Shown piece after piece: positions 17,825-58,766 of a stretch of 64,000 nucleotides of DNA. Numbering within the stretch: the stretch's first letter is position 1; each line of letters begins with the position of its first letter. The stretch spans positions 62,001 through 126,000 of the forward strand of contig JADIIX010000053.1 of the NCBI GenBank assembly GCA_027604505.1, in the 5' to 3' direction. A model generated the notes under the pieces. That model ran no database searches, was not told the DNA's origin, and worked only from the letters and a program-made list of their open reading frames with translations. The position numbers were made by a program, and so were the translations under genes. The DNA is from Gonapodya sp. JEL0774 (lineage: Eukaryota).

Positions 17825-18046
17825 TCAGTTGCTTGCAACCCAATTCATGAATGGTGAGCTCTTGGTTCGGGGTCTCCAAATGCGCACGAAAGAGAAGGTA
17901 CCACTGTTCGCTGTTATTGGTTTACGTATCATGTATCCCACATAGTAAAACGTGATACATATGATAGTTCCAAAGATAACATCTCGCGCAACATTCCAAA
18001 CGTCGCAGTGTAGATACAAGCATATTCCGGGGGGAAGAATGCTCAA
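17825..18046 (-). pseudogene. Hydrophobic membrane-protein-like gene fragment
   Basis: ILPPGICLYLHCDVWNVARDVIFGTIICITFYYVGYMIRK has no ATG and abuts the repeat fragment at 18046. Confidence 0.3.
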
Positions 18047-18220
18047 AACGTCTAGATAGATGCAACCTAGATGCTGATTAAGGGTTTCGGTCTAGGATTC
18101 TATTGCGCCAAAACGTCTAGATTTAGGTGGAATTTGGTAGAGACTGCTATAATAGAGTCATTTTGGTATAGATCCTAACAAACCCTAGTTAGATCTTCCC
18201 AGAAAATCTCCGGCCGTGTA
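18046..18220. mobile_element. Terminal fragment of a putative DNA transposon with TAGAT/CTAG subterminal repeats
   Basis: AAAACGTCTAGAT occurs twice (~18046 and ~18110) with several further (C)TAGAT motifs. The stretch ends CCGGCCGTG-TA, i.e. TA|CACGGCCGG on the minus strand. The other end was not found. Confidence 0.4.
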
Positions 18221-18226
18221 GTCAGC

Positions 18227-18345
18227 CTCAAGCTACATCAGGCCAGACCAACCCTGAACCAGGTCCCGACCTGGAGGTTGAAGGCCCAATGTAGAATCCT
18301 CCCCTTGCGAGGATAAAGACCTGTATGACAGCAGGAATCTCAAGC
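18227..18345 (-). ncRNA. Putative omegaRNA (Fanzor guide RNA) scaffold
   Basis: Minus-strand UCCUC-GCAA-GGGGA hairpin (18313-18300) plus a nested 62-nt hairpin at 18294-18233 with 12+7+6 bp stems. Its mismatches are G-U pairs only on the Fanzor strand. The 5' boundary is uncertain. Confidence 0.65.
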
Positions 18346-18903: not shown

Positions 18904-19494
18904 CTGTAAACCCAAACATTCAAGCTAAACTCGAATATCTCTGCAAAGGTGCTTCACATTGTAAATCTGTTTGAATTTCAACCTAAACTTGTCCCCCACG
19001 ATCTTTACCTCAGGGTTGATGAACCTTCGGCCGGTTTCCGACGTGGACGCAACAGGTTGGAGTTTTCAGAAGGGTATTCTTCCACTGTTATTATAAGGGG
19101 CATCCATGTATCCGCGCATCATTGTCATTCTCGACGCTCCTCATCATACTGGAAATGGGGTGATGTTGGAGGCGGAGACAGGGAGGGGAACAAGGGCGCG
19201 CCCATGGTTTCCATGGTGGAGGTAGAGCCGTAGAGGAGTTGAAGGAGTGAGGGTGGGTGGGACGGTGGTAACGCTGTCTGGGAGGGGCGACCTTGGAACT
19301 TTTCAATTTTCAATTAAATCATTGGTATCGTTTATCAGCATTGTCTTTGACCTTTGACAGAATAAAGTTGACTGTCAGAATTGTCTTTATCTCAACATTA
19401 GACAGATGAAACACTACTATTCCCAGGTTTTTTAGTTGCAGTTGAGAGACTGCATTTTACACGATCAAAGATCTTGTGACCTGATGTGTATATA

Positions 19495-19968
19495 CGACTC
19501 CGGAAAGACCGAGCATCAGCATGAAGAGCTGCAGCCGGTGGCAATAAAAGTGAGTCGAAGTAGCTCTGGCTCGCGCTACAAAAACCGAAGAACTGTGAAA
19601 ATGAAGTTCGGTAGAGTGTGCGAGCTGTTTGCGGTCACCTGCCAGAGTAGGTGGGGGCAAACCTTCAATATTCGAATGCAAAGGAATACCACCATTGCGG
19701 GACTATCAGCGAAAGATGCTCACTGCGAAGTGATGCGCAGTGAGCAAGCTTTGTCGAGAAACGCACAATAACGGAGTTCAGAATCAAGAAAAGCGAGTAT
19801 AAGAGGATCGGAACACCTTATTTGGACAGGATGTGCGACTCCCGAAAGACCGGAAGCCCAGCATTCAAATCAAGAGCCGGTGGCAATTGATAAAGTCCTC
19901 AGTCTCTCTCGCTCACGTTACAAAAGCCGAAACATCAAGGAGATGGTCTGCGGTAGAGTGTGCGAGCT
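19495..19968 (+). repeat. Two diverged ~130 bp direct repeats about 341 bp apart
   Basis: 19495-19626 and 19836-19968 share CGACTCC.GAAAGACCG, AGCCGGTGGCAAT and CGGTAGAGTGTGCGAGCT. Confidence 0.8.
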
Positions 19969-32497: not shown

Positions 32498-32562
32498 AGC
32501 ATTAATAAATTACATTGACATGCGAAACCTCTGTAAGAATTTATGGAGAGACCGAAAAGCAG
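32498..32562 (+). repeat. 65 bp dispersed repeat, copy 1
   Basis: 60/65 identical to 58702-58766. Confidence 0.9.
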
Positions 32563-37486: not shown

Positions 37487-40400
37487 CTAAATTGGGCAAC
37501 CCCCACATCTTACTCCATCCACACATCCAATGCACGTCAGAACTTTCACGCCCAATGCCTTCATGGCGGCAACCAGGAGAGACGTAACTCCCTCTCCGAG
37601 CACGAGTCCCGAGGCAACCACAATACCGTCTCCGCCTCGCCAAGATTTTGGTCGTTTGGTACGCCAAAGGTATGCAACGATCCCCCCGGCAACACGCGGA
37701 AGTACGAAATTTGGGGTTATGTACATTCCAATCGCAAAGCCCTTCATTAGAGTGAGCGTACAGATAGAACTGAATGTAGTGGCACGGGATGTCAACAAAA
37801 TGAGTCTCTACTTACCACGCCACTTGGCAGTAACCTCGCAAAGAATATCCTCCAGCTGTTCCAGTCTAGTTTTTCCAGAATACTCAATGCTCGGTCCCAG
37901 AAGGAATCACCTGACTGTCCTCTCGTTGTACTGAGGGGCACAGAAAGTAGCAACTCCAATATTGGAAGGAATGCACCAAACACTCCGCCAATAATACACC
38001 AAGGTACAACGCTCTCGGGCAGCTTCCCGCCATTCACAATTCGCGCCATATCCAGCCATATTGCTGCTGTGGGGGCGCCCAATTCTGGCCCTGGCACTTG
38101 ATACACCTTCGTGTACAGAAGGAACGCACAAACCGTAAGGGGTACTGACGCAACCGATCCGATGAGTTGACCGATAAACTGAGCATAAGGTGAGGCAGAG
38201 AGAAGATGACCTGTTTTCAAGTCCTGAAGTAGGTCCCCGGCTTGTTGAGCGCCAGCTATTTCGCGAAGAAGTTTAACTTGTTGAGGTGGTAGGTACCAGG
38301 CGTAATACAGGATACTCACCTTCTGCAATTGCCCCAGCAACGAGATTAGCCACAATATTGCCTGGTGCAATCGCGGCGAAAACCAACTGGGAAACTTTGC
38401 CGATTCTAACCATCAGAGAGAGTGTGGGAGACTCTGCACTTAACTTTCACGCATCAAAACTCGACCATTCTCCAACTTACCCACTCACGGGATTAACATC
38501 AATCTCGCCTAATGTCCTCACAGCGACGACGGCACATAGGCACCCCACTATGACTGCAACCCCCACCTTCCACCAAGAAACACCAAACATCGGGCCAAGG
38601 ATTGCCGCGCAAAGCACAGTACTCAATGCGAGGCCTCCATATGCGACTAGAGGTGGCACAAGGTGATTACGAGGAGCCGGATCGCGGACGGGAGGACTTC
38701 GTTGAATTATTGCGCGAACGGTCGACAATACAAAGAGATTGAAGGAGGTGAGAGACTCGGCGAGCATTAAGGAAAGCGATACCCATAGGATCCATCTATG
38801 TATCAATAGTTGATTGGTGGCGAAAGCGTTTGAGAGGAAGACGGTCTCACGAACCCTTGAGCACCTTCCTTCCAATCGAATACTCCTTTGCACCAACCCT
38901 GACTCTCAGCGTAAGGTCCAAGGAATCCCCATCCAAAGAGAGCACCAAACAGCATAGAAATCGTGGTGTGTGCCTTCAGGGAACGAAATGGTGGGAAATA
39001 TGGACACAATACACTCTAATCCAGACCTCACACCCATAATCATCCCTTGACCAACATAGCTCAGGGCTTTCAGAGGTAAAAGGAGAGGAAAGCAATCCCA
39101 AAATTTTGAGATACCCGTGTAGCGGTCGCTGATGCTAGCTTCCCCACTCACAAGGTGTCACCCACCATCCCCATTTCGTCGCCATTGAGATCCCAATCCA
39201 TGACATTACCGGTGCATTGTAGAGCACCGGAACGAAATAAGAAGCTATCGTATAGGAGGAGGAGGCGACGAAGGAGTACAGAAGTGGAGATCGCGAAGGC
39301 CCGACAACATTGGGTCCCTCGGAAATGGGGGTGATGGCAGAGGTAGCAGGTTCCTCGGAGATCGTTGAGTGGAGGAGCTTAATTAGCTGGAAATTGACGG
39401 AGGAAGTCACACAATTCGCCGCAGGAACCGCTCAAGCAATCTTAACACACCACTGCAGTTGCCGTTCCACTTGGAAATCGCAGCTTTTCCCTCAGAATTG
39501 TCATACTTCTCATCCCTACAGCGAAGAACACACCGAAAAATGCCTATGTGGGGTAAAAGACAATACGTCAGAGGGACGCAATCCGGACAATACTTTGCAA
39601 CAAAAGTACCAGTGATGAAGTCCACGCAATCATGGCTCCGGGCGTCATTTGGACTGGTCCACCTTCTTCGGGTTCAACCTGAGTTAGAGCGATCACGACC
39701 CCGACAAATCCACCGGCTAGTGGCTGTCAATGGTCAATGTGGACGGTTGATATGTACCAAAATCACCTCCTTCAGTGACACAGTCAAAGATACTACCATT
39801 GTGCCAGTTGCGACCGCTACGGTCTGAACAAGTACGTTTTCCTGCGGTGACCACAAGGAGAATCTGTGCAAGATAATGTAGCCAAGGAGAGCCGATGGCA
39901 AAGACGCCATCTTGGGATGAAGCGATTCCGTCAGAGTTACGATCTGGCATCACAGTCTTTATCACAGCTGCAGTGCCCGCAGTTCCCACTCACCGTAACC
40001 CAACCTGTTTGCAGTCCAAAATACATGTTGGAGAAGACCAAACTTGTACCAATAGCCAACTGGTAAACAGAATGTCACATCTCAGAGATGACTGAGTCGT
40101 ATTAAGTGCCACGATCCATCAACTCACCCCTGCGATAACTGCGCGAGCCGAAACCTGTGACTGCACAGACATGTGCTCAAGATCCCTTTGAATGAGAACC
40201 TCGTCGTCCAGCCCAGCATCAGTAGTTCCTCCTAGTCGCCTTCTCACACGCTTCCTATCCGTTGTTCCTTGGATCAGTGGCCCCTCTTCCGAATCTCTCC
40301 GTTGAACCAGCCCGTCGTCCTCATTATCATTCGCCGTCACAAGAACATCATCGGCGCCCCCTGGCAAATCCGAGTACGCTGAATGAACAGTTGAATGGAA

Positions 40401-53113: not shown

Positions 53114-56100
53114 CTAGACGGTGTTGTTTCCTGATAGATTCGCACTTGATTTACTTCCTTCAATAAGTTCGCGAGCTTCTTTCGTAGTAGCATTTGCTTC
53201 GGGGGTAGCCCACTTTGATCGGTCCACCTCTATGAACAGCAGCCAGCAAATCAAATATTTGCAAAATGCGAGGACGCACTGTGAAACTCACCATCACCGT
53301 AGTCTACGAACAATTCCTCGCCCTTCAATATGTCTCGACAAGTCCTGACAATAATCTGATTCACTTTCGCTCCCATGATATACTCAACGTTGATTCGGGT
53401 CTTGTCCTCGTTAATAAAATGCAGACAACAGTAGCCCGGCAGCGATGGCTTAGTGAACGGCATACCGTCGGGGTCAGTTGCGTCAAGTACAATGTGACCA
53501 TATCGAATCTGAAGATGAGGACAAGCGAAGAGCATTAAGGGCAGAGGACAGCATGACTGCGTTTCAGAAGAAGGACGTACCGTGTACATATTAGACAAAA
53601 GCATGTGTTCTTTTCGAGCATCGTACTCATCCTCCAACATTGGTACCCCAAAGTAGAACCCTAAGTAAGTGTATTTGGGTATCGATCGGCGCGCATAGAC
53701 TCCGTTTCCTGAGTTTAAGATCTTAGAGAGTATGTGTGGAGAAACGAAGTTTTGGTGCACATTTGTAAGACACGGTCCAACGAACAACTCACCGAAGAAG
53801 GTCTGACATCCAACAGCTCCTCCAGAGATCCCGGCAATGGTTCCTTTTCCTTCAATGTATGTCGTAGCACGGGAACATCCACTTCCATCGCTTCAATCAT
53901 GCCCGGTGCCAACTCAGCAGGCAAGCTCACAGCACTTTCCGGGAAAGCCGTATTTGCCAAAGACTCCATAACCAGCTCGTGACTCATATTAAGATGGCTC
54001 GGTGCACCCGCCTCGTATTCTGAACTAGTCTTGGAACGCTTCGTCAGTAAGCTGGGTGCTGCTGGAAAGCTCTCTACTTCGTCGCCATCCTCCGACCAGC
54101 GCTCCACCTCAAATTCCGTAGGCATCTTCCGCTTCTCCCCGCGGCTTCCACAGGAGCCTTGAGACGGTCTGCCGTCGGCCCTCATTTCATCGTCGGAATC
54201 GGCTGCACTGCGATAGGCGGAATCGATGTCCGTTAAAGGGGGGGTCAGCGCACCAACTGCAAATGTGGTTTCAGATTCCACTAAAGATCCCGTTCGGCGA
54301 CGACGGACTTGAGTTTTCAACAGATAGGGTTTGCTCGTGGAGGTTCCTTTGGCCGTAAATGTCCTGTTCCCTCTGGATCCCATGCTGCCTGCTCTCGAAC
54401 CTCTTCTCGTTCCTTTCTTCACTGGTTTGTTTTCAACAGCGACTTTGATGACTGGGACAGCTTTCTTTATGGAGCTTTTGTTGGCCTCCACCGCATGTCC
54501 CCCTTCTTCGTCCACTCCATCCATCATCCTGATCACTTGGTCTTCCTCATCCTCATCGAGTCCAGGCTCCGCCACCTCCCAAGTATTGAAGACATCATCA
54601 TCACTGTCGCTGGGTTCGTCGTCGAAATCTGATATGGACGCCCGAGATCCTTTGACTGGAGCGACGTGACGACTGAGTCCTGGCGGACCGTGCTTTCCCG
54701 ATCCTCGTGTCCGGAAAGACGTTCTGGTGGAAGAAGAGCTCATAGTCTTGCTCTGCTCGGTACTGAAATCACCATCTGGTGCCATCAGAGTTCCAGACAC
54801 ACAACCCTCTGCACGGAAGTTTTGATATCCATCTACTACCGACGTTGGGTAGCCCAGGATATTGTTCATGGTTGGTTGCGTTCTTGAAAAAGGAATCGAA
54901 AATCCACGATTTCGGCGCACTTTCAGAGGCTTGGAGAGAAAAGCTGAGATGCGCTGCTTCGCCGCTACTTGCTCTGCTGTGGTCTCCTCCACCTTCTTCT
55001 TTTGGATGGGCATTTTGCTTTTTTCCGTCTCCTCGTTGTACCAAAGGTTTTCTGTGTTAAACATGATGGGCCAATCCTTTTCGACCAAGTCACGAGTCCA
55101 GTCAAGGTATGCCGACCACGCAATCTCAAAAGATGATGACTCAAAAGAGGGGTAAAACCACGTCGTGTTGGAGTTCAGTGGCCGAAAAATGTGCCAAAAA
55201 CTGTCCCGGTTGTCAGCGAGCACAGCGGCTGCAATGGTGGAAGGTTTCTAAATTGTGCCGTGGCGGATAGGGAACTTTCTGGCATATGAATCGCGGGCTT
55301 ATTGCATCCAAAAGAAACTCACCTTCCCCACAAAACACCGCACCAAGCCTCTTTCCAAGCTGATCTTCTTGTCGAGGGCAAGTCCTCTAACCACGAGCTC
55401 ACCCTTGCTTAACGGCCTGCCAGCTTGACGGAGTGCCATAAACATAACGTAAGAGCCTGTGTACCATCGTGGCCTCGCTGGTGCGGGTCCGTCCGTAGTA
55501 GGGGCGCTAATCTTCGGTTTGCGTGTAGGAATCTTGCGCTTGCTCTTTGAGGGCAGTCCGGCAAGGTCGTGAACAGTCGTTCCGAGGAAGTTGTAGCGAG
55601 GTTGAGATACTTCTTTACCCTGAAGGATTGCTTTTTGTCGACGAGTCGCTCGAGGTTCATCGGGGTCCACCTGCACCTCAAACACGTTGACTGAGGCTGC
55701 CGAAGAAGAAGTATCTGAAGCCGCATCGTCATCGGGTGGAGTCAGTGGGCGATATTTGTCCCGATTCGCCGTCTCTTGCTTCGAATCCGCAGGCACAACA
55801 GACAGAATGCGAAGGGCAGGAGGCCCGTCGGGATCAGATATCAACTGTGGTGAATGTGACATCACGTCCTCTGTATCGGGCGAATAGTCCGAAGCAACTG
55901 TCACAGTATCTGCAGATCGCCATGAACATTCAGAACATCCAGAGCAGGTAGAGGCCCCATCATCATCGATATCCTCTACCACTGCAATATGGGTCGCAGC
56001 AACCCTGGCAGCAGAGGACACCTGCCCGCGAGTGCGGGCACGAGGACGGGTGACTTCAAAGGGCAGTGTCGGTGAAGAGGATGGGGGCAAAGCAGCACCT

Positions 56101-57674: not shown

Positions 57675-58701
57675 GAGGCGGACAGTTGTTACACTCACGA
57701 CCCGACTGAAACTCACCAGAAAGGAGGTCAAATCACTCACAGACACGGTCGATCTCTTTATCTAGCTATCGATCGTCGTCTCGAATTTGTGATCCGCTGG
57801 TAAACCCAGAAATCTGTCGAAGATTTGGGGTGTGGGGAACTCTGTATGACCAGTCCTACCACGACCAGCAACACCAATATTCGACACACCACACGCTGAC
57901 TCGGTTACCATTTTGAATGCTAGTTCTCAGCATTCAGTGCATTAGCAGTGTCTTCTGGTCGCGCCGACACCCTGAACAACTACGAAGTTCTCAAACAAAT
58001 GTTGAGCTGGATACAAATATTCATATCATGTCGCAATTCATGGGTTTGAATTCTGTTCTGTTCTGTTGGATGCGACTCTGGGCATCAAATTATTAGCGCA
58101 AGGGCAGGTCTTCGCCTGGGAGCAAAATTACATCCGATTGTCCAACTCCTCAAACCGTGACGATGGCACGTCTAAGAAAGACAAGAGTTATGCTTTTGAG
58201 CTAGGACGTGTTTTCTCGTGTGTAGCTCCTCGTATGGCGGAGAAATTAACATAAATGTGAACTCGAAACTGCCTTCAGTTCGGGGACGTCCACCCAAGGA
58301 TGAAGTGAGAAGTGAGGCCGATTTGGATTCGAGATCGGGAGGCTTGCCTGGAGACTTGAATCGCATGCGTGCAACAGGAGCAGCCGCCGACATCGGCGGC
58401 GGCGACGGATCTCGGTTCACTCGAGGTCCACCGTCGAGAACGCTTTGGCGCGGCGACGTCAATCATTTTGCATCCGATACGAGTACCAGAACAAAGCACC
58501 TAGAAGGACAACGAGGACGCCTAGGTAAATGAAAAGGAGGATCCACAGTAGCCACCCAGGGCCTTGGACGGCGATGGATTTTGGAGCCTCGGAGAAAAAG
58601 TCCCGCACGGATCCTGTTGCCCAGCGCCTGCTTCCAGTCAGACACGATCGCCGATCAACCAATCCGCCGAGGATTGTACCTGGACGTACAACTGGAACAG
58701 G

Positions 58702-58766
58702 AGCATTAATAAATTACATTTACATGCGAAACCTCTGTAAGAATTCAGGGAGAGACCGATAAACAG
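58702..58766 (+). repeat. 65 bp dispersed repeat, copy 2
   Basis: 60/65 identical to 32498-32562. Confidence 0.9.

Follow-up and report, generated by a model that had tools for sequence, protein, structure and literature searches.

Fanzors are eukaryotic relatives of CRISPR nucleases. Two hairpins at positions 18317-18233 on the minus strand of the 64-kb stretch of DNA analysed here (the window) probably constitute, in the single copy seen, the omegaRNA scaffold of a Fanzor1, placed at the right end of its transposon. This reading is supported by the position and strand of the hairpins, by their layout and by a 5' motif that is common to published Fanzor1 omegaRNAs. The mapped Fanzor1 guide RNAs are few and have little sequence in common, so that a compact scaffold with predicted borders provides a new data point.

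A Fanzor1-like gene remnant lies upstream of the hairpins

Upstream of the hairpins and on the same strand, we identified the remnant of a two-exon Fanzor1-like gene that has kept RuvC-II, the zinc finger and RuvC-III. The RuvC-II exon (18903-18734, minus strand) carries DEFRTS and the first zinc-finger half (Pfam PF07282, E 4e-6), and the last exon (18644-18488, minus strand) carries the second zinc-finger half, the RuvC-III NRD motif and the stop codon (PF07282, E 0.0012). Both exons are stop-free. Between them lies a predicted 89-nt intron (18733-18645, GT-AG, phase 2), whose removal yields 108 codons with the sole stop at the end. We built a Fanzor profile from 48 relatives (636 positions), in which positions 511-571 match 18903-18734 and positions 573-600 match 18644-18488 (E 1e-8); the spliced sequence matches positions 511-600 with an E value of 7e-33. 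It is 41-49% identical to the closest among 52 proteins compared, and the named Fanzor relatives include chytrid, yeast, aphelid and oomycete proteins. The best relatives include proteins of 685-749 aa, and those inspected carry the TDG/TNG motif, which PMC10711439 describes as typical of Fanzor1. For the RuvC-II exon the best solved-structure match was the Parasitella Fanzor1 PpFz1 (E 0.006, weak if taken alone). The remnant protein thus appears Fanzor1-like, a placement made by best match and by the motif in its relatives.

The front of the gene is missing. Sub-profiles for the missing front gave nothing below E 0.03 between 18900 and 26000 on the minus strand, and since RuvC-I, WED (with TDG) and REC are absent, this copy is not an active nuclease. 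The broken Fanzor that the earlier note had placed on this strand is borne out by PF07282 and by the profile. A further intron of 105 nt (19008-18904, minus strand, GT-AG) is predicted on the basis of splice-like ends only, and the sequence 5' of it gave no significant profile match. The segment 19100-19009 (minus strand) directly 5' of this intron resembles by eye the strand that precedes RuvC-II in relatives, but it is out of frame. A comparison of the 57-aa exon with longer proteins retained none of 61 candidates, and no full-length Fanzor was found within the 64-kb window. A possible Fanzor N-terminus at 19574-19740 (plus strand, E 0.07) was rejected, being weak and overlapping a likely intron. 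This match comes from one copy of an old duplication beside the element (19490-19626 and 19831-19968, plus strand; 72% identity over 137 nt, spacing 342 nt). The window is eukaryotic, probably from a fungus; spliceosomal introns are predicted in it, and its host genes encode, among others, a mitochondrial carrier, an OPT, a PARP, a SET and a PHD-finger protein.

Two stable hairpins fold on the Fanzor strand

The hairpins themselves are real and go beyond chance. All pairing stems that had been proposed were recovered in place on the minus strand, and folding confirmed helices of 12, 7 and 6 bp. These make up the second stem-loop (SL2, 18294-18233, minus strand), with 25 pairs in three helices, four of them G-U, and pair probabilities of 0.85-1.0 in the ViennaRNA ensemble, including each G-U. 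Its last pair is the likely end of the scaffold. The fold check suggested in the earlier note was carried out over the window: the 90 nt at 18316-18227 (minus strand) have a folding energy of -43.1 kcal/mol, the most stable value obtained. It was reached by none of 4262 sampled segments (90 nt, step 30, both strands, 64 kb) and by none of 1554 GC-matched segments (mean -21.4, sd 6.1), and the best segment on the grid was itself one overlapping the hairpin region (-42.3 kcal/mol). Against shuffled sequence, the whole span 18227-18345 scored z = -2.4 and the trimmed span 18233-18317 scored z = -5.2, the trimming having been chosen post hoc. The stretch from the stop codon to the scaffold (18487-18318, minus strand) is unstructured, as two 85-nt blocks 5' of the hairpins scored -0.05 and +0.44. 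Elsewhere in the window, the 90-nt folds next in stability were seen at 55951-56040 (minus strand, -42.2 kcal/mol) and within 58351-58470 (-39.9 kcal/mol), both of higher GC content.

The first stem-loop (SL1, 18314-18296, minus strand) was previously described as a GNRA hairpin at 18313-18300. Such a hairpin of 5 bp with a GCAA loop can form, but its pairs have probabilities below 0.1, and ViennaRNA prefers a register of 6 bp (18314-18309 with 18301-18296) closing a 7-nt loop, with probabilities of 0.70-0.89. In the 6-bp register a seventh position would be U-U.

The direction of the G-U pairs had been taken as a sign of selection at the RNA level, on a count of five. The direction holds, although the favoured fold contains four such pairs. 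All four are G-U on the Fanzor strand, which would happen once in 16 times if each were a coin flip. Folding energy favours the minus over the plus strand by about 9 kcal/mol, and the shuffle z-scores of 18233-18317 show no strand preference (-5.24 on the minus versus -5.26 on the plus strand). With equal z-scores on both strands and only four G-U pairs left, the strand argument is modest. A hairpin of single-stranded DNA would presumably favour G-T over C-A in the same way, so that the bias is weak evidence for strand selection and fits an RNA and a single-stranded DNA hairpin alike.

A 5' motif and a terminal stem suggest the borders of the probable scaffold

The 5' start of the omegaRNA likely lies at 18317-18311 (minus strand), where a UUAUCC motif (18316-18311) lies at the base of SL1, 171 nt downstream of the Fanzor stop on the same strand. 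The earlier note had the RNA begin at 18345, which we move to about 18317. Between the Fanzor stop and 18200, 18316-18311 is the only instance of YT[AT]TCC. The resulting layout, a UUAUCC start followed by a short SL1 and a long SL2, is that of Fanzor1 omegaRNAs. A strict pattern of YTATCC, stem-loop and GGAG occurred once in 128 kb of strand sequence, namely at the scaffold, and the loosest form of motif plus hairpin occurred six times in 128 kb, which corresponds to a chance of about 1.4% within 290 nt behind the stop. A descriptor of motif, SL1 and closing stem gave 12 raw matches in the window, three of them supported by folding, with -0.52 kcal/nt for the scaffold versus -0.23 and -0.10 for the other two. 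The descriptor recovers 36 of 83 ends of the giant-virus family described below. Pattern and descriptor were both designed after the locus had been seen, and their counts are therefore not blind tests.

We compared the motif with the Fanzor1 omegaRNAs in PMC10432273 (supplementary file 5), where 11 rows are labelled Fanzor1; Torulaspora (495 aa, no motif at the start) was left out. A YUWUCC or AUUCC form, judged by eye and not by a published rule, starts eight of the ten RNAs, five from Spizellomyces, two from Parasitella and one from Guillardia. The Batrachochytrium RNA has the motif internally, before a hairpin, and the Dishui Lake virus RNA has a looser form. In the same file, inspection by eye showed a stem flush with the guide in the RNAs of Spizellomyces, Guillardia and Dishui Lake virus. 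The Parasitella RNAs lack a flush long terminal stem, and the Batrachochytrium RNA gave no clear picture by eye. This comparison suggests that Fanzor1 scaffolds may be recognised by three features: they start with YUWUC(C/A), their first hairpin is short, and the stem that closes them ends flush with the guide.

According to PMC10711439, the scaffold of a Fanzor1 RNA has its last bases paired in a double-stranded stem and forms no pseudoknot. Since Fanzor1 scaffolds end in a stem there and in the giant-virus family, we place the guide start at 18232 and not near 18226, where it had been put before. The scaffold is thus likely 18317-18233 (about 85 nt) and the first guide nucleotide is likely 18232. 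The predicted guide comprises about 15 nt of flanking DNA (18232-18218, minus strand). The 12-bp terminal stem expected of such a scaffold is present, but the border was derived from this same stem and the agreement is circular. A scaffold of about 85 nt with a 15-nt guide falls inside the 75-150 nt given for Fanzor1 omegaRNAs in PMC11423790. The same source describes SL1 in three solved Fanzor1 RNAs as the first stem-loop near the 5' end, with 7 bp; the 6 bp found here count against the omegaRNA reading. For the predicted guide, we found no second site with fewer than three mismatches in the window, and the four sites with three are near what chance would give.

Comparison with known Fanzor1 systems

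The arrangement is already known from Spizellomyces and Chlamydomonas, as are truncated Fanzor1 copies with intact RNA ends. The SpuFz1 omegaRNA of Spizellomyces punctatus is alike in that the scaffold lies 3' of the stop, begins with YUWUCC and continues with SL1 and one long SL2 up to the guide, and partial and gene-less Spizellomyces loci are described as retaining the scaffold. The window gene differs from SpuFz1 in having introns, a scaffold of about 85 nt that begins 171 nt past the stop, and an SL1 of 6 bp, and the window element shows no clear 30-nt terminal repeat. In the GtFz1 RNA of Guillardia theta (PMC11423790, Table S3), SL1 likewise begins inside a YUAUCC and has a 7-nt loop, and the outer stem ends beside the guide (both by eye), whereas the RNA is about 150 nt long, has four stem-loops and overlaps the end of the coding sequence. 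In Chlamydomonas reinhardtii, the CrFNuc or CRe-1,2,3 elements are described as intron-bearing Fanzor1 carried on Helitron2, frequently 5'-truncated with intact 3' ends, and with the RNA in the 3' UTR about 100 bp past the last exon (PMC3627910, PMC10530073, bioRxiv 10.1101/2023.06.13.544871). Asymmetric repeats are real in these elements and only a candidate in the window, and the distance from their 3' repeat to the end is 20-30 bp, whereas here it would be about 80 nt to the predicted end.

These systems suggest how the scaffold may work. In an intact family member, the 3' untranslated end would give rise to the omegaRNA; SL1 would presumably bind the RuvC/zinc-finger surface of the nuclease, as Fanzor1 SL1 is described to do (PMC11423790), and SL2 would have its closing pair at the end of the element. 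Starting at 18232, some 15 nt of flanking DNA would serve as guide for cutting the empty insertion site; a guide taken from flanking DNA is described for Fanzor1 in PMC11423790 and PMC10432273. The nuclease of the present copy has lost its front and cannot cut, so that its scaffold RNA would need the nuclease of another copy and would probably act only if loaded by it. In Spizellomyces, gene-less ghost Spu-1 scaffolds are reported to have supported editing with SpuFz1 in cells (PMC10432273, PMC11423790). If copies had kept the scaffold after loss of the gene, this would bear on the question whether Fanzors are supplied with guides in trans by loci that have no gene. The intact scaffold may just mean that the truncation was recent.

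A giant-virus Fanzor1 family has a comparable right end

Scans of IMG/VR viral sequences yielded 160 Fanzor1 loci (L121-L280), of which 149 share one common right end in 83 distinct versions. The last 120 nt of the viral element (for example L124:3665-3780) are a ready-made omegaRNA family with a sharp right end. Among 38 ends picked for diversity, 32 have a TCA motif followed by a 7-bp SL1, and in these 32 ends each pair of SL1 shows 4-18 double-sided changes, while conservation stops at the point where the SL2 domain's outer stem stops. In an alignment of 29 viral ends, a biased set since it was drawn from the 36 that the descriptor recovered among the 83, pairing holds in 98.9% of cells, and these descriptor-chosen ends have a covariation score of 0.374 versus 0.165 when shuffled. 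For 7 of 67 loci, a terminal repeat consisting of the inverse of the right end was detected upstream.

The window scaffold as predicted resembles this family in having a motif, SL1 and a closing stem that runs exactly up to the end of the element, and both outer stems read UACAY/RUGUA. The viral Fanzor1 differs in being intronless and 21-31% identical to the query used, and its scaffold in being about 120 nt long, with a branched SL2 and true terminal repeats. With filters off and a cutoff of E<=10, a covariance model of the viral family (R1) found no match in the window and so lends no support to sequence homology between the two RNAs. A short motif of the viral end is shared by the Guillardia RNA and also, if one gap is allowed, by the hairpin in the window.

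Searches for copies and related hairpins

Within the window, neither blastn nor tblastn found a second copy. A metagenome scan with a 16-nt pattern, which is too short, returned 120 loci, none of which extended beyond the short hairpin motif (best 31 nt) or gave a Fanzor-like match below E 0.05. Exact and degenerate hairpin patterns had no hits in prokaryote genomes and viral contigs, and blastn against phages gave no match. Neither P0008, P0012 and P0002 nor the window exon, used as queries in viral scans, led to DNA around the closest relatives, and a genome scan for Fanzor relatives found none among 40 stretches. Rfam has no family at the hairpins, with two weak matches outside them that are below the gathering score. 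A reading as a prokaryotic terminator was rejected, as no T-tailed hairpin is present.

Element ends and alternative readings

We looked for features that would mark the ends of the element. A 20-nt stretch abutting SL1 (18331-18312, minus strand) matches, inverted and at 16 of 20 positions, a stretch further upstream (19391-19372, minus strand) that is followed by a 6-bp hairpin and is a weak candidate for the left end. By chance, an arm of this quality turns up in 40 of 1534 spans of 40 nt and in 37 of 511 spans of 120 nt across the window (p about 0.03-0.07). A third match to the repeat, at 39944-39963, has no related context and was treated as chance. A second weak candidate for the left end is a 17/26 inverted match to the end of SL2 at 19487-19462 (minus strand), whose score is matched by 5% of 12280 background positions (p 0.05) and which sits at the edge of the old duplication. 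At 18233 we saw neither a terminal repeat nor a target duplication that was convincing. A 7-nt direct repeat (18345-18339 and 18233-18227, minus strand) lies on both sides of the scaffold and begins where the border is predicted, and a 5-nt part of it also adjoins the 5' repeat arm (19395-19391). It is possibly a target duplication or due to chance, a 7-mer repeat within 150 nt being expected at roughly 1% per position with 16 positions tried.

The candidate repeat raises the question of a Helitron2-type unit. In PMC3627910, Helitron2 elements insert after TTTT or in TT and carry inverted repeats that are asymmetric: the 5' repeat itself makes a hairpin, whereas the 3' repeat directly precedes one and is 20-30 bp away from the element's end. 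SL1 could then be a DNA terminator, with the end of the element near 18296-18281 and SL2 belonging to flanking DNA or to another element. The geometry fits, with the repeat directly next to SL1 and a 6-bp hairpin behind its partner, and in Chlamydomonas Fanzor1 rides on such elements, but the 16/20 match is borderline (2.6-7% of spans by chance), TTTT is absent before the 5' arm, and RepHel gave no Pfam match among 37 frames scanned in the window. We consider this reading unlikely because it would leave the scaffold upstream in unstructured sequence and SL2 unexplained, with the most stable hairpin of the window adjacent only by coincidence. A combined picture, in which a fungal intron-bearing Fanzor1 sits on a Helitron2-like element that has gained the 85-nt omegaRNA behind its 3' asymmetric repeat and ahead of its end, and in which the scaffold of the gene-broken copy was selected as a guide donor for intact copies, is also unlikely as a whole. 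A narrow literature check found no description of a fungal Helitron2-borne Fanzor1 in titles and abstract openings, which is not proof of absence.

The hairpins might also have no guide function and belong to a small palindromic element, to the end of another transposon or to the 3' UTR of the convergent PHD-finger gene. Such an origin would agree with the lack of an Rfam family and of a match to the viral model, with the 7-nt repeat flanking 18338-18234 as a target duplication would, and with the flank at 18122-18044, which carries short repeats of its own. The chance rate of such 7-mers speaks against it, as do the Fanzor1-type motif at the first stem and the non-canonical SL2 pairs, all four of which read G-U on the strand of the Fanzor and not on that of the PHD gene, and we give this explanation a low probability. 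Least probable appears a longer omegaRNA, in which an outer stem (18332-18316 with 18229-18213) would enclose both hairpins and shift the guide start to near 18212. Its outer pairs do reach probabilities of 0.39-0.48 in the ensemble of 18335-18212, but the stem is interrupted and rich in G-U, two local hairpins compete with it equally, and SL1 would no longer be the first stem-loop near the 5' end as in the three solved RNAs. The omegaRNA reading itself, advanced in the earlier note, is the likely one by position, strand, layout and 5' motif, with its borders moved to those predicted here.

Beyond the predicted guide, the flank contains an exact 14-nt repeat (18044-18057 and 18109-18122, plus strand, 65 nt apart) with a partial third copy at 17995-18004, together with further short repeats and, at about 18196-18168, a weak hairpin. 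This repeat flank (18044-18122) may belong to the end of another element, or the Fanzor element may extend into it. A dispersed 65-nt repeat occurs elsewhere in the window, at 32498-32562 and 58702-58766, with 92% identity.
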